Source: a virus (lineage: Duplodnaviria; Heunggongvirae; Uroviricota; Caudoviricetes). Taken from it: DNA of 47,629 nucleotides. The notes under the pieces were generated by a model, which saw only the letters and a list, made by a program, of their open reading frames with translations, ran no database searches and was not told the DNA's origin. Both the position numbers and the translations under genes were made by a program. Positions 55 to 43,267 of the stretch are shown piece after piece. Location of the stretch: IMG/VR virus record IMGVR_UViG_2687453529_000003, one strand, 5' to 3'. How positions within the stretch are numbered: position 1 is the stretch's first letter; each line of letters begins with the position of its first letter.

Positions 55-639
55 TTACTCCCTGACAGGATTTACAGGCCACTCAATATCAGGTGCAGTT
101 GATGTATCAACACGGTTCAGCAATACCCGATACTTTTTCCAGGCTTCCAGCAATGAGGTTTCTTCCTCCGTTGCAATTTCCAGATCTGCAGCATCCTGAA
201 GCGGCGCAATATGCTCACTGGCTACCTGCATCAGGTTGTTTTTTGTTTCTTCCGCCTCCCGGATCCGGAACAGTTTTTCTGCTTCCGTATCCTTCACCCA
301 GGCTGTGCCGTTCCACTTCTGAAACTCCCCTTCCGGCGATAACCAGGTAACATTTTCCGGTAACGGACCGAGTTCAGAAATAAATAACTCGTCCCCTGAC
401 GCTACGTCATAAACCGTTTTACCCCGATGGTCTTCAACGAGATGCCACGATGCCTCATCACTGTTGAAAACAGCCACAAAGCCAGCAGGAATATCTGGTG
501 GTGCAATATCGGTACTGTTTGCTGGCAGACCTGTATGAGGCGGAATATATGCGTCACCTTCACCAATAAATTCATTAGTTCCGGCCAGCAGATTATAAAT
601 TTTTATGGTCCGTGCTTGTTCACTCATTCTGAATGCCAT
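55..639 (-). CDS. tfa: tail fiber assembly protein
   Basis: 194-aa ORF immediately downstream of and overlapping the side tail fiber gene by 1 nt; position and sequence character match lambdoid Tfa chaperones. Confidence 0.75.
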
Positions 640-3600
640 TATGCAAGCCTCACAATATAGTTAAATGCGATGTTTTTGACGGTGTTTTCCGCGTTACCCG
701 CAGCGTTAACGGTGATGGTGTGTCCATGTGAACCAATCGCAACGGAGTGCGTATGCGCACCAATACCTACAGTATGTGCATGTGCGCCAGAACTTGCTGC
801 AGTACCAGACAGCGAGTGGGTATGAGCACCTGCTGACTGTGTCTGAATACGTTGATAATACGATCTATAGGAAGAAGTCTCCGGGCTTACTTGATACTGT
901 GAATTCTGGACATAAGTGAACCCACCGCCATCATAAAATGCTAACGCAGAACCGCCGCCTCCTGGCCAACGAATACCATTACCATGAGTATGAACACCGG
1001 CAGACCCCGTAGAGCCACTCAGACTGTGCGTATGCGCCCCGGTGTTATTCGTGGATTTAGTGCCGTAATCAAACGACGATGTGGTTTTCGTCCCCAAATC
1101 CGTACTGGATGCGCTGGCGCTGTGGGTGTGCGATTTAATGCCGTCCTGTTCCTGAGACAATACGGCCCGGCCACTGGCGGGTTTGCCCTTGATTGTCCAG
1201 CCGCGCATATCTGGAATAACACCTGAAGGATAGGCAATAGCCAGTTTCGGATATGCTGCCTTATCAAACGTCTGCCCCTGCATGATTGCATAACCTGCAG
1301 GTGGTGTATCTGATGGCCACGGCAGCGGAACACCTGGCGGAAACGCTTCAATATTTGCCGAGCCGTCAAATTTTACGCCGTTAATTGTCCTTGCAGTTTG
1401 CAATTTGGTTGCTGTGCTTGCATTACCCGATAAAGATCCAGTGATACCACCACTCGCGTTTAATTTAGTTGCAATTGTAACATTGCCAGTATGGTTACTA
1501 ATTATAAACGGCCTTAAGCTATTGTGCGTACCAAGACTGTTACCCGAATCTGTCAACATAAAATATGTGTTTGATCCATCATTTCGGATAAAGAATCCAT
1601 AGTTGCCATAGGCAATACGCAGACCATTTGCTGACCTTGAAATAACCTCACCAGCAGCAGTTAAACCACCTGAAAGAGTCCCTCCAGTTAATGCCAATGC
1701 CCCAATATTTGAAGGGGTCAATGTGATATTTGCACTACCATCAAATGACACACCGTTAATCGTTCTGGCTGCCTGAAGTTTCGTGGCGGTCGCAGCATTA
1801 CCTGTAGTGTTTTGATTACCGGTAGCGTTGACTCCAGGCAAGTTGATATCTGCCGATCCATCAAATGCCACGCCCCCAATCTTACGTGCTGTCTTGATCT
1901 TGGTCGCAGTATCTGCGTTTCCGGTCAAATTACCAGTAACACTACCACCAACTTTTAGTCCATTACCGATGGACACCAACCCTGATCTTAAGTTTATAGA
2001 GAATGGTCTTAATGAACCGATGTCTCCATTTTCCCCCTCCCCTTCATTAGTCGGAATAAGATGAAGATGATCTTCGGAACGCCTAAAAATAAGGCCAAAG
2101 GCTTGGTTGAATATTCGAAGAGCATTTATCGTGCTGATTTTTAACTGCCCTCCCATTGTGTCGCCAGTTTTTTGAACTGAACTATCTTTAACAGTTTTAA
2201 CTGCCTTTGGCGTTGCCGCCAGCTTTTCACTGGTGCTGTTTGTTGCACTGCTGAGCTGTACTATCCCCTTTTTCGTCGTGCTCGCATCCTCCAGCGCCAC
2301 GGCGGATGCAATATCCTCTGCCCGTTTTGCTGCTGTCTCGGCGCGCGTTGCCGCGGATTCAGCAGCAACTTTGCTCTGAGATGCAGCCGTCGCACTGCCT
2401 GCCGCCTCTGATGCTTTCGTTGTTGCTGTCGTGGCACTACCTTTCGCTGCTGACGCTTGTCTGGTCGCCTCATCTTTTGAAGCAGACGCAGATGATACCG
2501 ATGACGCCGCTGAACTGGCTGACGATGCGGCTGCCGCCTTAGAGGAAGCAGCATTGTCTGCTGAAGTCTTTGCATTTGTTTCAGAGGTTTTTGCTGCAGA
2601 AGCAGACCTCGCTGCTGCAGTGGCTTGCTCAGTGGCTTTGCCAGCCTTCGTTGTGGCTGTTGAAGCGGATGATGCGGCGCTTTCTGCCGATTTTCCGGCG
2701 GCGGTGGCACTGGCTGAGGCCTGCCCGGCACTTGTTGACGCGGCACTGGCAGATAATGCAGCCGCTGTTTTTGAACCTGCCGCAGCTGAGGCGCTCTGTC
2801 CCGCTGCTGTTTCAGAAGACTTAGCGTTCGTCTCGGACGTTTTTGCCGCCTTCGCGGAATTTCCTGCCGCCGTTGCCGAGGAAGCTGCACTACTGGCACT
2901 TGATGATGCATTCGTTTCTGAAGATTTCGCTGCCTCTTTTGAGGCCGCCGCACCCCGTGCCGAGGTGGCAGCTTCTGACGCCTTCGTGGTCGCTGTGGAT
3001 GCAGAAGTGGCTGCCGATTTTTGTGATGCTGCGGCATTCGTTTCTGACGTTTTCGCGGCACTGGCGCTGGTAGCTGCCGCGCTTTTTGATGACTCTGCAG
3101 CAGCAGCACTTTTTGCTGCTTCACGGGCCTTTGTCGATGCCGTTCCTGCGCTGGAAGACGCTGACTGAGCCGACGACGCGGCCTGTCCGGCTGACGTGCT
3201 GGCGGCACGTGCTGAGGCTGCAGCATCGGTTGCATGAGTTGCCGCCTCGCTGGCTGATGCACTGGCATCGCTGGCTGATTTTTTCGCGGCTGCCGTATTC
3301 TGTGCAACCGCTGAGGCGTTACGTGACACCTCTTCCACCATCTGCTCAAAGCGGCGCAGTGCCTCCGGTCGGACATCATCCTCCGTCATGGCACCGAGAA
3401 AATCATTCAGCGTACCTGGTCTGGAACCTTCATAGACGGTAATGGTCCCGGCATGTGAAGGCGGAAAACCTTCAACCAGCAGGGTGACGCTGTACTGACC
3501 ATGCTCAACATCCATGCTGTAACGTCCGGCTTCATCCGGATTTTCAGAGGCCACCGTGTTCACCACCACCGTGCTGCTGGTTCGTCTGGCCTTCAGCACA

Positions 3601-3816: not shown

Positions 3817-4416
3817 TCAGAAACGGTATCCGATACCAACAATAAATGCATCCGTTCGCCAGTCGCCACTACCGGAACCTTCATAAGCAAGGTCAATGGT
3901 CACGGATTCGGTCGGGTTAAACTGCACGCCAGCCCCCCACGCCAGAGACGTGTTGCTGTGGCGACCGTCATCACTTCCGGTCAGCACATCGTGCGTTTTC
4001 CCCTTGTTGTCAGTTACGCGGAGATAATCCCCGGAGAAAGTCGATACACGGCTGTAAGCCACACCCGCCATCGCATACGCGCTGAACCATTCATTCACGC
4101 GTACAGACGGCCCCGCCATCACGCTGAACCAGCGGTTACGCACGGAATCTTCATGCCAGCGGGTATCGCTGTAGCGCGTTTTTTGCTCATCCTCAGCATT
4201 GGCATAACTGAAGGACGTAATCAGCCCCAGCGCGTCCGTAAACTCATAACGGTATTTCACGTTAATCCCGTTCAGATCATCACTACCGGGAACGTTCGTC
4301 GAGGCATGGAGATACCCCGCGCTCAGCGTGGACTGATGTTCTGCTGCACTCGCTGGCGTAGCAGCGGCGACCTGCCAGACTACTGCGGACAAAATAACAG
4401 CACATAATTTACGCAT
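3817..4416 (-). CDS. lom: Lom outer membrane protein (Ail/Lom family moron)
   Basis: 199-aa ORF with signal peptide; close match to lambda Lom including the C-terminal YEGSGSGDWRTD..GYRF motif; sits between J and stf as in lambda. Confidence 0.85.
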   Translation of the reverse strand: MRKLCAVILSAVVWQVAAATPASAAEHQSTLSAGYLHASTNVPGSDDLNGINVKYRYEFTDALGLITSFSYANAEDEQKTRYSDTRWHEDSVRNRWFSVMAGPSVRVNEWFSAYAMAGVAYSRVSTFSGDYLRVTDNKGKTHDVLTGSDDGRHSNTSLAWGAGVQFNPTESVTIDLAYEGSGSGDWRTDAFIVGIGYRF

Positions 4417-4437
4417 AATTACCTCTAGCTTTTCTGC

Positions 4438-4465
4438 AATAAAAAAGGCGCCATTTCTGGCGCCC
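4438..4465 (-). terminator. rho-independent terminator between J and lom
   Basis: hairpin ggcgcc-agaaat-ggcgcc followed by a T run on the minus strand. Confidence 0.5.
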
Positions 4466-4483
4466 GTATCTGGGTTATAAAAT

Positions 4484-7400
4484 TCAGCTAATCGTGATGC
4501 CTGCAGTGGCTTTCTTCATCACCACAACCAGCAAATCGCTGATACTTGCTGTGGGATACCAGTTATTTACCAGCCATGCTGACACCGAAAACTCCAGTGT
4601 CATGTGACCGTGACCGGCAGGCATATCAATAACACCACTGTAAATCAGCGTATTATCCAGCGCGGTACGGTTATAAATTTCAGCACCGTTTTTCCGCACT
4701 ATCAGACGGCATGAGGAGTAAATATCAGTATGCTCTTTCTCATGTTTAGCGCCGCTGAATGCCACCGCCGGAATAACAATCTGCCGGTCAAACGGCTGAT
4801 CGTCATAAACCCTGACGGTAATGGTTCCTGATGGCCACCGCTCCGGTGCACGGGAGTCCCGGGGGAAAGCTTTGCCCACTGTTTTAACGAGATCGCCTTC
4901 AATCTGGTTCGCGGACAATTTTCCCAGAACCCGACAGTTCTCGTTAATCGTGACGTTGTTGAGCGTCCCGGAGTTCGCATTCACGTTACCGCTGATATCG
5001 GCATTTTTCGCCGTCAGCCGCCCGTCCGGTGTCAGGGAAAATGCCGGAGGATTACCGCCGCTGGTAATGGTGGGAGCCGTCAGATATTTCAGGAACACTT
5101 CATTCATAAATATCTGATCGCCCTGACCAACAAACATCGGCTTTGTGTTGCCATTCGCAGGATTAATCATCGCAATCCTGTCTGCCGCCAGCAGCACCTG
5201 ACTCTGCATTCCTGCTGGCGTATTCTCAATACCGGCACCGATACCCGCAATATAAAGGCGTCCGTCCTGCATCTGCTGCAGTTTCACGGCCCACATGCTG
5301 TTCAGGTTATTATTTGTATCAACCTGAACTTTCTGTATCTGCTGGATTGCCGCACTCTGATTTTCCAGTTTTTTATTGACGGTCTGCGTGATTTCATTGC
5401 TGACATTCGTAATGGACGTCCTGATTTCAGCCAGGTCCGGCGCAAGCTGACCGTTATCAATCTGCGTCCACAGCTCCTGGGCCAGATGTGTTTTCCCGAT
5501 TTCTCCTTTGAAAAAATCCAGGTAACCTTCCGCATCATCGCTCGCCCGACCGACAGCCTCCACGAATGCCGATTTGCCAACAGTATTCACACTGCGGATA
5601 TAAAAATAATAATCATGGCCCGGTTTGATATTGATACTGGCAGCTATCCAGTACAGCGCCGAGCCAAGATAGCGGGCTGCGGTTTCAACCTGCCTGATAT
5701 CCGCAATCCGCTTTTCCGAGAACCAGAACTCAAACTGTACCGTCGGGTCATAAACGGCAAGATGTGGCGTTGCGGTTATCTGAAAATAGCCCGGCGTCAG
5801 CTCAATCCGCGACGGTGCTGCCGGTGCGGTAATCCGGAAGGTGGTGGTGGCAGGTTCACCCTGCTGGCCATAGCTGTTTATCGCCCGCACCGTCAGGGTG
5901 TATTCCCCGAGCGGCAGGCCGCTGAAACGGTGCTCCGTGTCTGCGGTGATGGCGGTGGTCACCAGTCTGGCATCCGTTCCCTTACCACTGGTCAGGCGCA
6001 GACTGAAGCGCACACCCTTCACCACCCGCGGCGTGTCCCATTTCGCCTGCGCCAGATACTGGCCGTCAGCTGCGCTCACCTCCACCGTCAGGTGCTGCAC
6101 TGCCGGTGGGATGACGCTGTTCAGGGAACCTGACTGCGGCTCAAAGCGGGCACCGTTATCCACGATGGCTTCTTTTTCCGGTACGTGCTGCACCGCCGTG
6201 ATGGCAAAGGTGCCGTCCGTGTTTTCCCGGACGGAGACACAGCGGAACAGACGACGGCGCAGTGACGGCAGGGAGAGTCCCCACACCCCGTATGTCTCCA
6301 CACCATCAGGCAGGGTACTGACCTGTATCCGGTCCGGCGCGGGGTGTTCGGTGATGTCCACACTCACCGGCTTACCGCTGCCGTTAATCAGGTTCACCGT
6401 GGCGGCACCGGTCTCCGGAAGTGTCACTTCACGGTCCAGCGTCAGGGTGCGGGTGGCAGCATCAATGGACAGGACACGTCCGCCGGTCAGGGTCCCGGCA
6501 TAGTCGTTATCACAGATTTCAATGATGTCACCGGGTGTGTGCCGCAGCCCCTGAGACCCGAGCGTGAAATCCACCGTCTGCGTTTCCAGCAGTTCGGTCT
6601 TTATCACCCACAGTCCGGCACGGTGGGCCTGACCGCGGCTGGTACAGCCGAACGCGTCCATCTTCAGCAGGTTGCGTCCGTAGCGCAGTATGGCTTCCGG
6701 GTCTTCCACCAGTTCCGTGGAGGTCTGCCAGCCGTTCTGCGGGTCGGTGTAATTCACCTCCACCGCCGTGTGCCGGTCCTTCAGGGCACTGAAGCTGTAG
6801 CGGAATCCCACGCCGTTATCATCCACCACCACATCGCTGTTGGTGTACGGCCACACCACATCCGACGGGCGGTCCTGAACGAACGTCAGCGTCTGACCGT
6901 TCCATACCGGCATACAGCGCATCGCAGAGCAGAAATCACTGAGAACGTCCCACGCCTTACGCTGTTGTGCCAGGTACGCATTAAAGGTCATCCGCGGCTC
7001 GGTCCCCCCGAAACCATCCGGGACCGTCTGGTCGCAGTACTGCCCGATGGCATACAGCGCCCACTTGTCCACATCCGCCGCCCCCAGACGTTTTCCCATG
7101 CCGTAGCGCGGGTGAGTCAGCATGTCCCACAGGCACCAGGCCGGGTTGTTGCTGTATGCCGGTTTCAGACTGCCGTCCCAGATACCACTGTACGTGCGTT
7201 TTTCCGGGTCATAGTTTGACGGCACCTGGATGATGCGACCGCGGATATGGTAGTTCACCGTCATCTGCTGGCCGCCGAACTGCTCCGCATCCACCTGCAG
7301 CCCCACAATGGCCGTGTTCGGGTAGCACTGTTTCACATCGATGATTTCGGTGTATGACGACCACAGCGTCTTATTCTGCAGCTGGTCCGTGGTGCTGTCC

Positions 7401-23289: not shown

Positions 23290-23812
23290 CATCGATCCAC
23301 CCGCCCACGTTTTCACCGGCCTTAGCTGCAACATTGGAGGCTTTCGCGATTTCAGTTTTCACCACATCAAGGTGTGATGGTGAAATGTCCGGATATTTAC
23401 GCTGTAATGTCAACGGCACACGCACAAGTATCCCCGAAATCTCCTGTGCCACACGTTGCAGAATAAAGGTAAACAGTTCAGTTTCCAGCACCACTCCGTC
23501 TTCACGGGCATTTTTCAGTTCCTGCGCATCTGCCTGCGCTTTTGTGAGCCGGTAGCGTTCATAGTCAATGGTGCCGGGTTGTAAATCTGACTCCGCTGCC
23601 GCACGCAAATCGGCCAGTTCTTTGCGGAGCTTTTCGTTTTCGATATCAGTTTCCCTCTGCGCATACCACTGAATTGCCATGGCAGTATCAAATACAGATT
23701 CAATGCCCTTACTGCCTTTGGAGACGCAAGGGAGCCCCTGAGACTGCCAGCGTTCAATCGTCCGCGGGTCCACGTTAAAAATTTCGGCAAGCCTCTTTTT
23801 ATTAACCTTCAT
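23264..23812 (-). CDS. nu1: terminase small subunit Nu1
   Basis: starts [12 protein letters not shown]..., close to lambda Nu1; the ORF-track N-terminal extension to 24016 would run through cos and is rejected. Confidence 0.85.
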
Positions 23813-23986
23813 AGAACAACCCATTATCAAATACAAGGCCCGACATGAAAACGCCAGAAAAAGGCATTTTCGGACACTTTCATGTCGGACATTTATGAAT
23901 GCAATATTAAAAAAACAAAAAGTTATATTCGAGAAGTACCGACACGATTTTCCCTGAAAAATTTTCATAAATAGTGAAAAACCGCG

Positions 23987-23998
23987 AGGTCGCCGCCC
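23987..23998. other. cosN cohesive-end site (virion DNA left end)
   Basis: minus strand reads GGGCGGCGACCT, the lambda 12-nt cohesive end, about 175 bp upstream of Nu1. Confidence 0.8.
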
Positions 23999-24099
23999 CG
24001 TAACGGTCTGGATCACCGGAAAGGACCCGCCAACGACTTTCGCGTGCAGGCATTAAAAATTTTGCAGTTCCATGCCTAGTTGAAACCTCGATTTCTATA

Positions 24100-24221
24100 A
24101 CATCCAATTTTGTAAATTTAGATATAGCTCAACTTTTCCTAATGTTTTCAAGTGTATAAAAACAATTGGCGTTACGCCATAACACTATACTTAGGATAAG
24201 TAAAGATTTTAAGGAGTTTTA
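24100..24221 (+). promoter_or_regulatory. AT-rich upstream region with probable promoter and strong ribosome-binding site for the 355-aa cargo gene
   Basis: AT-rich sequence; AAGGAG five nt before the ATG at 24222; no single clear -35/-10 pair. Confidence 0.3.
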
Positions 24222-25289
24222 ATGAGTCAACATCAATATTATCCACAGCTGAAATGGAAGCCTGCTGAATATGAATCTCTGATGCTTTTAGATCAAACTA
24301 CGCTCTCTGGTTTTACTCCGATCATTACCATTCCAGACATAGACTGGGATTATGAAAACGAATGCTACAAGAAGAGTTTGAGTTCTTACTTATCTGACTT
24401 CGGTATTAACCTTGCGGCATCCTGGAAAGCCAATCGTCCTGTTTTGCTGGATGTTAAATATTTAGATAAACATGGTTCGAGCCGCCATCATCCTCTAGAT
24501 ATGTGTATCCAAGATGCTAGAGTAAATGGTAAGGAAATTATCCCTGTTGTTTCTCCCGCATATTCAACAAACTATATACATGCTGTTCAACGCAACTTAA
24601 TCAATGGGCTCGCTATATCTATCACCCCCCAGACATGGCACCAATTCACAAGTCTGGTTAACCACTTAAATATTCATCCTAGTTTAATTGATGTAATCAT
24701 TGATTTTGGAGATATTCAAAACGCAACTGATAGTTTAAAACAACAAGCATTAAGCATGGTCAACACATTATCAGGCCAAGCTCCGTGGAGAAACTTGATT
24801 TTATCTTCAACCGCATACCCAGCATCACAGGCAGGGATACCGCAACATCAAGTTCATCATATTCCGCGCCATGAATACGATCTTTGGATGCACGTAGTAC
24901 AGAATTTTAGCAATGGAAGAACGCCAAGTTTTAGTGATTATCCCACCGCTAGCTCTACCATTACGAGCGTAGACCCACGCTTCATGTCTCAGTATGTCTC
25001 AGTGAGATATTCGAACGATACCTCATGGATCTTTGTAAAAGGTACCGCAGTTAAAGGAAATGGATGGGGCCAAACTAAAAACTTATGTACTACCCTTGTT
25101 AGTTCGCCAGAGTATCAAGTCTTTGGTTCCAAATTTAGTTGGGGGGATGATTACATTTACCAAAGATCATTAGGCGCTAACAAATCTGGCGGCTCTAAAG
25201 AATGGCGTAAAGTTGCACATACGCACCATATTACGTTAGTCGTGAAACAGCTTTATTGGTTGGCGCAGACTCAGCCTGCCAAGCCTTAA
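24222..25289 (+). CDS. hypothetical 355-aa protein, cargo gene A of a convergent pair
   Basis: long ORF in an AT-rich island with a strong ribosome-binding site; no motif recognised. Confidence 0.6.
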   Translation: MSQHQYYPQLKWKPAEYESLMLLDQTTLSGFTPIITIPDIDWDYENECYKKSLSSYLSDFGINLAASWKANRPVLLDVKYLDKHGSSRHHPLDMCIQDARVNGKEIIPVVSPAYSTNYIHAVQRNLINGLAISITPQTWHQFTSLVNHLNIHPSLIDVIIDFGDIQNATDSLKQQALSMVNTLSGQAPWRNLILSSTAYPASQAGIPQHQVHHIPRHEYDLWMHVVQNFSNGRTPSFSDYPTASSTITSVDPRFMSQYVSVRYSNDTSWIFVKGTAVKGNGWGQTKNLCTTLVSSPEYQVFGSKFSWGDDYIYQRSLGANKSGGSKEWRKVAHTHHITLVVKQLYWLAQTQPAKP

Positions 25290-25851
25290 CTTTCCAGCCT
25301 ACGCGTTTCTTTAAGGCTGTTCTGACTTCAAGCCTGAGATTCGCTATTGGAATATTTTCCGCAATAATATTCCATAACTCAAATCGGGGCTTGCTTTTGA
25401 TTCCTTTGGAATAGCCCCATCGTTCAAGTACGTCGATACATTCATCTTTCCAAAGCAATTGAGCGAGCATCAATGTGTCATGGTTTCGATTAAGCTTTTC
25501 TCCACGCATGTGCTTTATAAGAATGGCGCCTTTTGGCCCAACAGAAACCGTTTTAACGCCCCACCAACCTGGGATTAACTTTAATGCTCCCTCAAGATGT
25601 TTCTCAGCTACGACAAGAGTAACCTTGTCCATTACAGAAGAATAATGCTTGATTTGAAGAGGCAAACGCTCCAAAGAGTCATATTCACTTTTGAGCTCGT
25701 ACCCGTGTATAACACCATTTATTACAGCAATGTCTGCTCTACTGGCGCCAAGGGATATGGAAAATTCATCGACCACAAGGCAGTCTGGATCTAAATGCGA
25801 TTCTTTCAAAAGCTTATGATGCACCGCGAACCTAACATCTTGATCTTTCAT
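25231..25851 (-). CDS. hypothetical 206-aa protein with PD-(D/E)xK nuclease-like motif, cargo gene B
   Basis: ribosome-binding site GGAGAAG before the ATG; N-terminal ...DEFSI...RADIAVINGVIHGYELKSEYD fits a D ... (D/E)-x-K restriction-endonuclease-fold core; 3' end overlaps gene A by 59 bp on the opposite strand. Confidence 0.6.
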   Translation of the reverse strand: MKDQDVRFAVHHKLLKESHLDPDCLVVDEFSISLGASRADIAVINGVIHGYELKSEYDSLERLPLQIKHYSSVMDKVTLVVAEKHLEGALKLIPGWWGVKTVSVGPKGAILIKHMRGEKLNRNHDTLMLAQLLWKDECIDVLERWGYSKGIKSKPRFELWNIIAENIPIANLRLEVRTALKKRVGWKVKAWQAESAPTNKAVSRLT

Positions 25852-25871
25852 GACTTCTCCTTACTCCCTCC

Positions 25872-25910
25872 GTTATTGAATTATAGCGCACTGCATTTTA
25901 CTGCATTTGA
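25872..25910 (-). promoter_or_regulatory. putative promoter with tandem direct repeats upstream of the 206-aa gene
   Basis: minus-strand TATAAT about 25 nt upstream of the ATG; two tandem 10-bp repeats (CTGCATTTTA / CTGCATTTGA on the plus strand) cover the -35 position. Confidence 0.35.
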
Positions 25911-26200
25911 GAGATTTGACCACTTCAATCACAAAATGCTTATCTGCAGCAACAAGATTCATAGCCATACGACTATGGTGATTACCTTTTGTCTGGAAAA
26001 CTGACCATTCCACGAAGATCAGATAGGTCTATAGAATCTTGGTTTGTCATAGCGTTCGCCTTACTTTGAGATGAACCTTTGCTGCATAGGAGATCAGCCC
26101 GTCAAGGCTCACCAGCACTAACTGACTACTCAAAGGCTCATTCCAAAGGGTTTGGTTCGACGTGGTTGAGTGCGCTGCGGTGCGCGGTGAAATACCTGTA

Positions 26201-26232
26201 CAAAAATGCCCCGCATCTGCGAGGCATTTTCC
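26201..26232 (-). terminator. hairpin terminator downstream of Rz, flanked by A and T runs (potentially bidirectional)
   Basis: aaaaatgcc-ccgcatctgcga-ggcattttcc. Confidence 0.45.
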
Positions 26233-27995: not shown

Positions 27996-29849
27996 TTATG
28001 ATGATGCCGGTGCATTTATCTCCAGCACCAGACTTTCTATCTCAACGCCATACGTTGCATTTTTGGTAATATCCGTCAGCGTCAGTGCATTTAGTCCCAC
28101 TGTCAGACTGTCTTTTATGACCTGGAATGCCGGGCCAGCCACTCCATTCAGTTTCGGAGTAACCGTGGCACTGCCGGCGGTGAACACCAGCTCCAGCGTC
28201 TGCCAGTCGTTACTGTAATTCCCGAACTCGCCCAACTTTGTGTTTCCGGCTTTCTTGTGATGCATCAGATTCAGTTTGCCGTCTGTGGTCTGGGTGAAGA
28301 ACGACATCAGGAACGGGTTACCAGTCCCGGTCATCGCCACGACGTCAGGTAACGCTACATCGGTATACAGATAAATTCCCAGACCGAACTGGTTGTTGGT
28401 CAGTGCGCCTGACAGTCGAAACTTACAGCTCAGTCTGCCACCCCGTGTCAGCAGGGAGACTGCGTCATCCACCGGGCGCGTCAGGGACCAGGCTTTATTG
28501 CTCTGCTTGGTGATCTTAAATACACCATCTGACAACTGAATTCCACCATTCTTAATGCTCCAGCCCTGCGCAGCAGCCTCTCCGGCTGTCGGCAGCAGGG
28601 AGATTGTGCGAACGGACGTATCTGCAGACGGACCCGATGGCGTGTCGCCGCCGGGCGAGGGTTTGATTTCCGGTGCCTTACCACTGATGAAGGCTGAGGT
28701 GCGCCCGGCTGCGTTCAGAATAGCGGTTGCCATACGATCGGGAATAATGCCACGACGCGCCCATGAGCTGAAATGCGTCGGGCGATTTGATGATACCCAG
28801 TTTTTGTTCGTTCGGGATGCCGAACCGTAATAACCAGACCCGACAATATCAGGATCTTCTGACGGGTTGTTTGTCGGTGTATTAACTCCGCTACCATCGG
28901 TCATAAAGGGAACAAAATAAATCTGCTGGGATTCTTTACCTTTATATGCACCATATACCACTTCATATTGCGTACCGTGTTCTTGTTTCCACGCGTATGT
29001 CGTGTCGCCACAAATCCAGGGGACTGATGCCGGACTTCCACCGTGACACTGCGCCGCCAGCCCGGCAAGGTCAGCACGGAACTGCTGTACCATTGCAAGA
29101 AATGCTGCTGGCTGCTGGGCGTAACTGGCATTCGTCATATCGAATTCCCCCTGCATCCAGCATATCGCCAGCAAAACGTTTTTCGGGTTTTTCTGCAATG
29201 CTGCCTTCGTGCGGAAAAGCAGATCCTGATATAACGGCTTACCCACTCCCCAGCGAGCCGAATCCTGACTGGCCCCCGTGGACTCGCTGAATGTCCCCTC
29301 CGTGCCCTGGGTGAATGCCGAACCACCACGACAGCATGGTACCAGCAGGATCCCCGCGTTATTAGGGATATACGGAAGCAGTTTTTTGGCAATATGTAAG
29401 CCCTGTCCGACACAGCCGTACTGCCCTTTGCTCAGGTCAGCCCGGGGATGGTTAATCGTACTCATATCCTGAACATCATGCAGACAATGGTCAGCAGGAA
29501 TGATGTCGTTAAATACGCATACTTCACCACCGGGAGTCACTGTGTTACGACGGGCCAGTTGCTTAATGCGCGGATGGGGCGCATCGTATGAATCCGGAAG
29601 CGGAAGCCCTTCACCGTAAGCCATGGCATTGGACTGCCCGGCCAGTACGATGACGTAGTACCACTCCGGCTCAGTTGCACCACTGACGACCACATCACCT
29701 TCTGCTGCAATCGCCTGCATCAGGGTATAAGGGGTTATGGCCACCGGACTACCAAACGGCTGCCAGCCCTCTTTCAGTTTATGTGTCAGCTTTTCCGCAA
29801 GATCTGACGGCGACGCCGCCCTGACAACATCATAGTGTTTAAATGCCAT
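27996..29849 (-). CDS. prophage sialate O-acetylesterase (NanS-p-like; SGNH hydrolase with C-terminal lectin-like domain)
   Basis: about 617 aa; GQSNA SGNH motif; sits upstream of the holin as the nanS-p/yjhS-like genes do in Stx and related lambdoid phages. Confidence 0.65.
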
Positions 29850-30042
29850 GGTTCTTTCCACCATCTGAAAAATGATTCTTTAAAATACCTGACATGTAAT
29901 ACAGAAAAAACACAAAACCATACCTTAATTAAAAACCTCATCATCAAGCAGATATGCATGGATAAACTACAAGACGAGATATAAACCACCCTGCATTTAA
30001 ATAAACAATAAACAACATCAGAAAAATAATTCTGCTCTATGG

Positions 30043-30445: not shown

Positions 30446-30481
30446 GGAGTTTACTCACATCTGACAAAATCAATATAAACA

Positions 30482-30505
30482 GCCCCTCCGGAGAGGGGCT
30501 GGAGA
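30482..30505. terminator. hairpin between the two convergent cargo ORFs
   Basis: cagcccctc-cggaga-ggggctgg, followed on the minus strand by a T-rich stretch. Confidence 0.4.
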
Positions 30506-30892
30506 GTGGCGCTATGTGCCATTGCATGGTGCCGGGTGCCTCCCGGTGAATTCAGTACCAGCACCTGAATCCGCGATTATCCCATATACCTACTCGCTGA
30601 TTGCCCCTCCGCACAGGGGGATTCACCATGCCAGTTTCTTTTAACAAACTCCCCGCAAACCAGACAACAGTCAACCGCCTGAATTGTGAAGTATTTAAAA
30701 ATTTCTCCCGCTAACTGATACCCGGCTAACAGTCTGGCGTTTTCTTTTTCAGCAACGGGAAAGCAGCAACCACCACACCCGCCACCAGCACACCGTCAGC
30801 CAGCACTGACATTATCCGGCTGCTGCAATGCCATTCACAAAAACAGTAAGCAATCACTTTTTACCGTAACCGGTGATAATCCAGATATGTAT

Positions 30893-31356: not shown

Positions 31357-31433
31357 TGGCGCGCTGTACTGGATTCGAACCAGTAACCGATTGCTTAGAA
31401 GGCAATTGCTCTGTCCGGCTGAGCTAACAACGC
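31357..31433 (-). tRNA. tRNA-Arg (anticodon UCU)
   Basis: cloverleaf-compatible 77-nt sequence with GTTCGAATCC T-arm, anticodon loop cuUCUaa and encoded CCA. Confidence 0.8.
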
Positions 31434-31534
31434 TGAATACCGATAATGGACCGCCATCGGGGACCCGCCCCCGCACCAACAACCCTGTTATCGTGTCGTC
31501 TGCTCTTCCTGATAAGCTAATGGCGGTTTGTGAT

Positions 31535-31610
31535 GGTGGCCCTTGCTGGATTTGAACCAGCGACCTGGCGATTATGAGTCGCTCGCTCTCACCACTGAGC
31601 TAAAGGGCCG
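31535..31610 (-). tRNA. tRNA with CAU anticodon (Ile2/lysidine type, or Met)
   Basis: 76-nt sequence GGCCCTTTAGCTCAGTGGT...ctCATaa...GGTTCAAATCC...CCA, resembling the ileZ-type tRNA of lambdoid late regions. Confidence 0.8.
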
Positions 31611-35823: not shown

Positions 35824-35979
35824 TTACTCCTCAGGTTCGTAAGCTGTGAAGACAGCGACCTCCGTCTGGCCGGTTCGGATTCGTACCTCGCAGAGGTCTT
35901 TCCTCGTTACCAGTGCCGTCACTATGACGGTTAAACAGATGACGATCAGGGCGATTAGCATCGCCTTTTGCTGCTTCAT
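35824..35979 (-). CDS. hok: Hok/Gef family type I toxin (51 aa)
   Basis: MKQQKAMLIALIVICLTVIVTALVTRKDLCEVRIRTGQTEVAVFTAYEPEE is a clear Hok/Gef-type sequence; AGGAG ribosome-binding site. Confidence 0.85.
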   Translation of the reverse strand: MKQQKAMLIALIVICLTVIVTALVTRKDLCEVRIRTGQTEVAVFTAYEPEE

Positions 35980-36238
35980 AGCCTGCTTCTCCTTGCCTTT
36001 CGGCACGTAAGAGGCTAACCTACGTGTGTAGAGCATAGATATGGCCTCAGATTAATGTTAAGCGTCTTGCAGGACGCGTAATGTTAACTGGGGCTTTTCT
36101 CTATCTGCCTTTTGGTGTTCATGCCTGAGACAGATAGCCTCAAGCACCCGCAGTCATTCTACTTAACTAAGATTTCCCCGCAAACCGTTTTTGTCCGGCA
36201 CAGTAAATATCCAACTAAACCAATGGCGTTCGCTGTAT

Positions 36239-42735: not shown

Positions 42736-43267
42736 TTTATTCACAGGTGAGGTGGAGTGCGTGCGCCGGACACGGGTGAGCATCCGGCACTGACAGTTTA
42801 CTGAAAGGATATTTCCCTGAAAAGTCAGACCATAACGCGAAAGCGCACAGCGAGGTAGCTGGTTCATAGATAGCCTGTCGTTAAATTTTCGTCGACCGTG
42901 CGCTTCCGGTTGTGGCAATCCGCGAAATGGCGCGGCGGTAAGTATGGCGGGGTTATTCCTTCCCCCATTGAGGACACCGGGTTGTCAGGTTGACCATACG
43001 CTTAAGTGACAACCCCGCTGCAACGCCCTCTGTTATCAATTTTCTGGTGACGTTTGGCGGTATCAGTTTTACTCCGTGACTGCTCTGCCGCCCTTTTTAA
43101 AGTGAATTTTGTGATGTGGTGAATGCGGCTGAGCGCACGCGGAACAGTTAAAACCAAAAACAGTGTTATGGGTGGATTCTCTGTATCCGGCGTTAATTGT
43201 TAACTGGTTAACGTCACCTGGAGGCACCAGGCACCGCATCACAAAATTCATTGTTGAGGACGCGATA

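Follow-up and report, generated by a model that had tools for sequence, protein, structure and literature searches.

Closest described systems

Two experimentally validated anti-phage systems contain the protein families considered here. The gop-beta-cII locus of P4 protects against lambda and P1, and its three genes are all non-essential (Rousset et al., PMC9122126); the toxicity of this locus is triggered by the phage gene orf184 (Silas et al., bioRxiv 10.1101/2023.04.06.535777). PD-lambda-2 is composed of a HigB-like protein (A), an Xre-peptidase that is toxic alone (B) and a Beta-like protein (C); the last of these is needed for defence, whereas toxin neutralisation does not depend on it (Vassallo et al. 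2022, PMC9519451). In this study, we analysed a 47,629-nucleotide stretch of a lambdoid Escherichia coli prophage (IMG/VR virus record IMGVR_UViG_2687453529_000003, Caudoviricetes; hereafter, the window), in which an AT-rich cassette between the lysis genes and cos carries two convergent genes, one encoding a Beta family protein of 355 amino acids (aa) and the other a 206-aa protein of the sce7726/Phage_P4_cII family (Table 1). This locus is best read as a minimal, toxin-less and gop-less variant of the known Beta-cII defence family that occupies the lysis-cos slot as a moron; by analogy with the two systems above, we infer, with slightly better than even confidence, that it has an anti-phage role.

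A preliminary description of the locus had proposed a defence or exclusion system that was as yet undescribed. The defence role is plausible, since both families are parts of gop-beta-cII (PMC9122126) and PD-lambda-2 (PMC9519451). The system is, however, not of a new kind; models of its proteins exist in Pfam, NCBIfam, PADLOC and PHROGs, and RefSeq names both genes.

Assignment of the two proteins

The 355-aa protein, previously regarded as having no recognisable motif, proved to be a full-length member of the Pfam family Beta_protein (PF14350; E 1.8e-55; 189.2 bits versus a gathering threshold of 27; model positions 1-341 of 342), and it also matches PHROG 9159. Among the PADLOC models, those of PD-Lambda-2_C (PDLC03984, 2.7e-32; PDLC03983, 2.2e-25) match it more strongly than does 'beta' (PDLC02985, 2.3e-10, residues 3-338). 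No NCBIfam model matched the window Beta at E <=1, and none matched the Betas of P4, Rac-SA53, Sorangium and Gottesmanbacteria at E <=0.01, the presence of an sce7725 model in the library not being established. The 206-aa protein matches NCBIfam NF033832 (sce7726_fam) with 184.1 bits (cut-off, 70; model positions 1-182 of 184) and PADLOC 'cll' (PDLC02989, 4.3e-31), and its homologues carry Pfam PF26915 (Phage_P4_cII), a membership given by the precomputed annotation of all homologues listed. The earlier suggestion of a Beta protein paired with an sce7726 family partner agrees with the profile searches.

Relationship to gop-beta-cII and PD-lambda-2

The P4 locus, which is termed Rst_gop_beta_cll in DefenseFinder and gop_beta_cll in PADLOC, lies by cos with gop at 247-648 (+), beta at 651-1718 (+, 355 aa) and cII at 1746-2540 (-). 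Its Beta has the same length and belongs to the same Pfam family as that of the window, and P4 cII and the 206-aa protein both pass NF033832. Moreover, beta and cII converge in either locus, and the distance to cos is ~230-250 bp in both, each cassette occupying a variable cargo slot. The amino acid sequence identities are 22% for Beta and 27% for cII; P4 cII is a 264-aa protein whose gene is separated from beta by a 27-bp gap with a terminator, whereas the shorter window gene overlaps its partner. No gop gene was found in the window: a tblastn search of the whole window with P4 Gop gave a best E of 0.52, and the PADLOC gop model, which matched P4 Gop at 4.8e-70, did not match a 46-aa open reading frame (ORF) of the island, for which Pfam likewise returned nothing. 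Only ~190 bp of non-coding cassette sequence lies between the cos region and the start of the Beta gene.

Component C of PD-lambda-2 also belongs to the Beta family. Components A (HigB-like) and B (Xre-HTH/M78-peptidase) are absent from the window, where no ORF is present upstream of the Beta gene. The published three-gene definition of PD-lambda-2 does not include a cII-like gene, although PD-lambda-2-type genome loci carry one (see below); the published clone (ECOR42) ends 396 bp past the Beta stop codon and would cut short any convergent cII-like gene. Searches of plasmids and phages by tblastn with PD-lambda-2-type proteins yielded no enterobacterial example. Because it has neither gop nor the A and B genes while sharing the common parts of the two systems, the window locus lacks a defining feature of each.

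Conservation of the gene pair and its junction

Scans with the cII-like protein yielded 80 species-level genome loci and 80 viral contigs, which form, together with the window, P4 and two phages, a set of 164 sources. The family comprises 5,545 clusters at 50% identity (E <=1e-3), and the phyla hit include Proteobacteria, Firmicutes, Myxococcota (including Sorangium), Acidobacteriota, Flavobacteriales, Melainabacteria and several candidate-phyla-radiation groups. A Beta gene adjoins the cII-like gene in 160 of the 164 sources and is convergent with it every time; contig ends are among the four sources that have no Beta neighbour. In the reverse direction, a cII-like gene was present in all four contexts looked up from distant Beta proteins and in at least 16 of the 21 plasmid records hit by tblastn with Beta; in these, the overlap of the two genes had been annotated independently. 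A scan with a narrow Beta alignment returned mostly the same contigs again. Co-occurrence, which the preliminary description had named as a check, is thus near-obligatory from both sides, and the Beta-cII pair is, as far as these genomes can tell, the unit of selection.

The two coding regions overlap in 78 of the 81 loci analysed for this feature (median, 56 bp), in the same relative frame in all. The codons of two invariant residues, R183 of the cII-like protein and H336 of Beta, are separated by exactly 34 nucleotides in 70 of the 81 loci, which include those of Rac-SA53 and a Gordonia phage. In this canonical form, the conserved C-terminal motifs of both proteins abut on opposite strands, and the variable tail of each protein is encoded antisense to the conserved end of its partner. 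Such an overlap is far beyond what chance would give, and the gene pair has conserved it across phyla. The lineage of the window, which includes four further loci (L004-L007 in our numbering), has 73 nucleotides between the two codons, equivalent to 13 extra codons (window 25229-25303), and P4 has 345 nucleotides.

In the window, the coordinates of the two converging ORFs and the 59 bp that they share stood as first described. No terminator or significant RNA structure was found in the 59-bp overlap (z -1.1 and -0.3), and mutual antisense interference, which had also been proposed, is therefore permitted by the anatomy of the junction. A 14-nucleotide inverted repeat flanking the overlap (25196-25209/25300-25313) was treated as a chance occurrence; an RNA structure or hidden terminator at this site is unsupported.

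Several additional observations were made in the course of this comparison. Within E. coli, the bare pair also occurs as a second lineage, represented by Escherichia phage Rac-SA53 (L002, KU052037.1, 5001-6636), ~28 IMG/VR contigs and plasmid CP061267.1. This pair lies between the replication genes and hok/Q, a prophage slot other than that of the window. Its genes share 41 bp, and its proteins show 54% (cII-like protein) and 30% (Beta) identity to the window proteins; in Rac-SA53, an IS1 is located just upstream of the cII-like gene. Gordonia phage DumpsterDude (L003) encodes at 3956-4633 (+) a sce7726 homologue with 43% identity to the window protein. The deposited annotation at that site is a 216-bp hypothetical gene on the opposite strand, a gene call that is probably wrong. 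The homologue of phage Powerball is annotated as 'exonuclease'. Finally, seven assemblies labelled as different species (L022-L027 and L029; Bordetella, Bradyrhizobium and Afipia metagenome-assembled genomes) contain an apparently identical Beta-cII element, its lengths and its 110-bp overlap being the same in all seven, which suggests very recent spread or shared contamination.

Architectural classes and genomic context

We classified the 77 species-level genome loci that contain a pair. At least 49 of them are bare pairs like that of the window. In 14-15 loci, genes encoding HigB_toxin and HTH_3/Peptidase_M78 proteins, which match PADLOC PD-Lambda-2_A (4.9e-34) and PD-Lambda-2_B (1e-76), are located directly upstream of Beta; another five loci have other small, tightly coupled ORFs there, and seven near-identical Afipia/Bradyrhizobium loci form an uncertain class. 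A convergent, overlapping cII/sce7726 gene follows component C in all 14-15 PD-lambda-2-type loci and in all four Beta-started look-ups (L039, L047, L055, L059, L062-L065, L072, L074, L076-L080; L206-L209). The bare overlapping pair, which accounts for at least 49 of the 77 loci, is therefore the common form. The arrangement of P4 looks like a derived one. Likewise, gop and the HigB/Xre-peptidase genes look like add-ons to the pair.

Clustering of the neighbouring genes across 81 loci revealed no gene common to all. Integrases, transposition proteins, phage repressors and lysis genes predominate next to bare pairs, a context consistent with cargo of mobile elements or defence islands. The position of the window cassette, after the lysis genes and before the terminase genes, recurs in prophages of Xenorhabdus and Photorhabdus and in phages of Gordonia, and the P4 locus adjoins cos.

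The cII-like nuclease

The 206-aa protein consists of an N-terminal PD-(D/E)xK nuclease domain (residues ~1-120), a C-terminal helical domain (~126-185) and a disordered tail (192-206). Structure prediction and fold comparison identified the alpha-beta-beta-beta-alpha-beta core of restriction-endonuclease-like proteins, and residues E29, D40, E52 and K54 do not vary among 104 distinct homologues, of which P4 cII is one. Both results bear out the PD-(D/E)xK-like core that had first been noticed in the translation. The predicted fold and the invariant E/D/ExK tetrad argue that the protein is an active nuclease under selection.

Compared with the MmcB-like/DUF1052 PD-(D/E)xK proteins (PDB 3DNX, SPO1766), the window protein has an additional C-terminal helical domain and an obligate Beta partner, and it has no sequence-level match to the solved chain and no match in the Pfam copy that was searched. 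Relaxed Pfam scans of 58 cII-like proteins did not reveal a recurring weak link to known enzyme families. The long sce7726 forms (326-395 aa; P0237, P0295 and P0211) were examined as possible domain fusions and rejected as such; their C-terminal extensions contain no Pfam domain and are alike among themselves, and they look like the product of read-through antisense to the Beta gene, not like a genuine domain.

In P4, the designation cII goes back to a lysogeny-type phenotype, and the protein might be a DNA-binding regulator with a role in the life cycle of the element itself, namely in lysogeny, regulation or packaging. We regard this as unlikely. An invariant catalytic tetrad argues for catalysis and not for binding only, and related prophages do without the pair. 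Furthermore, the pair is found in chromosomes, plasmids and candidate-phyla-radiation genomes, often with no phage packaging genes nearby, and P4 can dispense with all three genes of its locus (PMC9122126).

The Beta protein

PF14350 is matched by all 34 diverse pair-associated Betas, and structure prediction confidently yielded a TIM barrel for the window protein. Residues Y6, E16, D161, D239 and H336 are invariant across diverse members, and D77, R216, Y263 and W328 are nearly so. In the predicted structure, D77, D161, R216 and D239 are located within strands or no more than one residue past a strand end. Several of the conserved acidic, His and Arg residues fall at or shortly past the C-terminal ends of strands. 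This is the usual region of the active site in TIM barrels; because the conserved residues occupy it, an enzymatic or ligand-binding role of Beta can be proposed from the model. Relaxed Pfam scans of the 34 Betas gave no recurring weak link to known enzyme families, and searches with both protein profiles against PDB chains returned nothing meaningful (best E, 0.087 and 0.37).

A natural disruption of the Beta gene

In E. coli strains 1532MA and 1532WA (L164, NZ_CM129638.1; NZ_CM149886.1), an IS1 is inserted in codon 38-40 of the Beta gene (window 24333-24342) and removes the invariant residues Y6, E16 and P33. The nuclease gene and its upstream region are nevertheless 100% identical to those of the window. 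Because Beta is broken while the nuclease gene remains unchanged, the nuclease seems to be tolerated without intact Beta, which argues against Beta being an essential antitoxin or a protective modifier.

This bears on two other explanations of the pair. The first is an addiction (toxin-antitoxin) module, in which the cII-like nuclease would be the toxin and Beta the antitoxin, so that the prophage would be stabilised and any defence would be incidental. In its favour, the two genes are compact and closely linked, a toxin-antitoxin-like framing has been used for both known systems (PMC9122126, PMC9519451), and the toxicity of Gop in P4 is reportedly neutralised by Beta (Ghisotti 1990, as cited in PMC9122126). 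However, the Beta-like protein of PD-lambda-2 is not needed to neutralise the toxin (PMC9519451), and the gene order and convergent transcription are unlike those of classical type II toxin-antitoxin operons. Together with the IS1 insertion, which is known from a single lineage, these points make an addiction module improbable.

The second is a restriction-modification-like pair, in which the TIM barrel of Beta would modify DNA or the nucleotide pool and the nuclease would cut unmodified invading DNA. Convergent type II restriction-modification pairs likewise consist of a small nuclease and a larger enzyme-like partner arranged tail to tail, and antisense read-through in such pairs can set the ratio of both products. 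The window Beta is, however, not a methyltransferase or a recognised modification enzyme, and its loss is tolerated in the IS1 strains, as would not be expected of a protective modifier. We consider a pair of this kind very unlikely.

Proposed function

Under the anti-phage reading, the pair would protect a lysogen from superinfecting phages through exclusion or abortive infection, and DNA would be cut by the cII-like nuclease as the effector. Beta would not be a simple antitoxin but a partner responsible for sensing a phage cue or for gating or activating the nuclease, perhaps by means of an enzymatic or ligand-binding activity of the barrel. Because no terminator lies between the genes, each transcript would run antisense into the partner gene; the expression of both genes would therefore be reciprocally coupled, and the pair would be inherited as one unit. 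We hold these mechanistic steps at lower confidence than the defence role itself.

Several points weigh against this reading. For gop-beta-cII, an anti-phage phenotype or phage-triggered toxicity is known only of the three-gene P4-type locus, and the PADLOC definition of gop_beta_cll includes gop, which the window does not have. The known toxic protein is Gop in P4 (PMC9122126) and the Xre-peptidase in PD-lambda-2 (PMC9519451), not the nuclease, whose effector role is a proposal; antisense coupling is deduced from the anatomy of the locus only. If ECOR42 has a convergent cII-like gene, the defence observed with its clone did not need that gene intact. Beta shows no specific similarity to any characterised enzyme in Pfam, PDB-chain and fold comparisons. 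The IS1 evidence comes from one lineage and two genomes, and the association with defence neighbourhoods is modest and lacks a control, ~10 of 128 bare-pair neighbours matching PADLOC defence models. All of the alternative explanations, including the one discussed in the next section, are nonetheless disfavoured relative to the anti-phage reading.

A broader interpretation, which we put forward only tentatively and think rather less probable, is that tail-to-tail Beta-cII constitutes an autonomous and ancient immune module, in which a TIM-barrel sensor or enzyme is joined to a PD-(D/E)xK nuclease, spread over >5,000 sequence clusters across phyla, whose mechanism would be unlike that of characterised systems, and that gop-beta-cII and PD-lambda-2 are its toxin-bearing elaborations. 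As part of the same interpretation, the published limits of PD-lambda-2 would leave out a fourth gene of that system, and the frozen 34-nucleotide junction would represent a functional requirement, either for antisense/transcriptional-collision control or for interacting C-termini.

Searches of the literature by family and system names (sce7726, sce7725, PF14350, PF26915, P4 cII and gop-beta-cII) retrieved no mechanistic study of the pair. Both families have been named and the two systems containing them validated; what we did not encounter in the literature searched is that the pair, rather than the toxin genes, is the constant part, that most sampled natural loci are bare pairs, that the tail-to-tail junction is nearly invariant from Enterobacteria to Actinobacteria phages and candidate-phyla-radiation genomes, and that PD-lambda-2-type loci also contain the cII-like nuclease gene. 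If the bare pair defends alone, detection rules that need gop or HigB/Xre-peptidase miss most of the family (several thousand clusters), and the mechanism of the two published systems would have to be re-read around a TIM-barrel/nuclease core. In that case, the 2-kb E. coli cassette with its native promoters, along with the natural Beta knockout, would also provide a convenient model.

The cassette and its prophage

The prophage is oriented on the minus strand of the window, on which the holin, lysozyme and Rz genes (27951-26268) are followed by the terminator hairpin, the island, cosN and the genes for a Nu1-like protein and TerL. The AT-rich island between the Rz-side terminator and cos, as initially described, was confirmed by the hairpin, by cosN, which we take to be such from its likeness to the lambda left-end sequence, and by a GC content of 0.37-0.44 over ~23800-26200 versus 0.50-0.59 in both flanks. 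Its extent required revision from 24020-26200: homology to related E. coli prophages ends at ~24029 on the cos side and restarts at 26047 on the side of Rz, giving the cassette boundaries listed in Table 1.

Table 1. Features of the Beta-cII locus and of the adjoining phage backbone in the window
Feature	Position	Strand	Remarks
AT-rich cargo cassette	24030..26046	none	2.0 kb; two genes plus an upstream region of ~190 bp on each side; Rz-cos slot
Beta family gene	24222..25289	+	355 aa
sce7726/Phage_P4_cII family gene	25231..25851	-	206 aa
Tail-to-tail overlap of both coding regions	25231..25289	none	59 bp
Ribosome-binding site AAGGAG of the Beta gene	24211..24216	+	5 nucleotides before ATG; read from the sequence
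Ribosome-binding site AAGGAG of the sce7726 gene	25857..25862	-	5 nucleotides before ATG; read from the sequence
Conserved block upstream of the Beta gene	24100..24175	+	TTAGATATAGCTCAA...GTATAAAA; conserved in close relatives
Conserved block upstream of the sce7726 gene	25881..25930	-	promoter-like site and tandem repeat
Lambda-type cosN	23987..23998	-	reverse complement of GGGCGGCGACCT; phage backbone; left bound of the cargo; Nu1-like and TerL genes directly beyond
Lysis-operon terminator hairpin	26203..26230	-	13-nucleotide arms; phage backbone; ~150 bp past the right edge of the cargo at 26046

The cassette region (2.4 kb) is 100% identical in E. coli ST648 and other strains, and the complete cassette is present in 126 of 5,426 complete E. 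coli genomes; RefSeq labels its genes there as 'beta family protein' and 'sce7726 family protein'. In related prophages with the same flanks, the slot holds YlcI/YnfO, DUF1398, Rha or DUF6979 genes instead, in accordance with the variable cargo slot that the preliminary description had recognised. Positions 26047-26120 of the window are a 5' remnant of rha, an antirepressor-like gene, which adjoins the Rz-side terminator and then Rz; over its first 18 codons, it shows 72% identity to Rha of a related prophage. YlcI/YnfO and most of rha appear to have been replaced by the cassette.

Sharp boundaries in a variable slot and AT-richness relative to the host could also be explained by a selfish mobile cassette, in which the PD-(D/E)xK protein would be a homing-type endonuclease spreading the two-gene unit and Beta would be an accessory. 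The presence of two unrelated pair lineages in different E. coli prophage slots and the spread of the pair across many phyla point in the same direction. However, homing endonucleases are normally free-standing single genes or are borne by introns or inteins, the cassette boundaries showed neither a target-site duplication nor a repeat, and such a cassette would leave the strongly conserved 355-aa enzyme-like partner and the frozen junction unexplained. This origin is, in our judgement, highly improbable.

With regard to expression, each gene was confirmed to have its own strong ribosome-binding site. A single promoter-like site was found upstream of the 206-aa gene (TGGTCA, 16 nucleotides, TAAAAT at 25922-25895 on the minus strand), with a TATAAT just downstream. 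It is overlapped by the direct repeat ACTGCATTT, present twice at 25890-25908 on the plus strand (AATGCAGT twice in the minus-strand form). Of the earlier proposal that tandem repeats overlie a promoter, the repeat is real, overlaps the promoter-like site and belongs to a conserved block, but the promoter call is not above chance, the scan having found four sites overall versus 6.0 expected. The promoter-like block and repeat are kept upstream of orthologues in Edwardsiella, Klebsiella, Pantoea and Pectobacterium, and we regard this block as a candidate promoter and operator. The block upstream of the Beta gene is a candidate promoter region, in which the consensus scan called no promoter. The lysis terminator hairpin is stable on the minus strand (-22.6 kcal/mol, z -4.8) and less so on the plus strand (-14.2 kcal/mol, z -2.9), and it could also stop read-through from the Beta gene.

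Between the Nu1-like gene start and cosN, there is a 27-nucleotide imperfect inverted repeat (23835-23893; 78% complementary, 5-nucleotide loop) that possibly belongs to the terminase/IHF binding region. The prophage has another cargo-type gene just upstream of its lysis genes, namely a 622-aa ORF (27996-29864, minus strand); the corresponding ORF of related prophages carries the annotation SASA family carbohydrate esterase. An Rfam scan of the whole window gave no match within the island. Elsewhere in the prophage, the Rfam and ARAGORN matches were the sok antitoxin RNA (hok/sok), DicF, STnc100, tRNA-Arg(UCU), tRNA-Met and IS009, for which the coordinates 35974-36149, 43042-43093, 30471-30660, 31357-31609 and 98-296 are listed.

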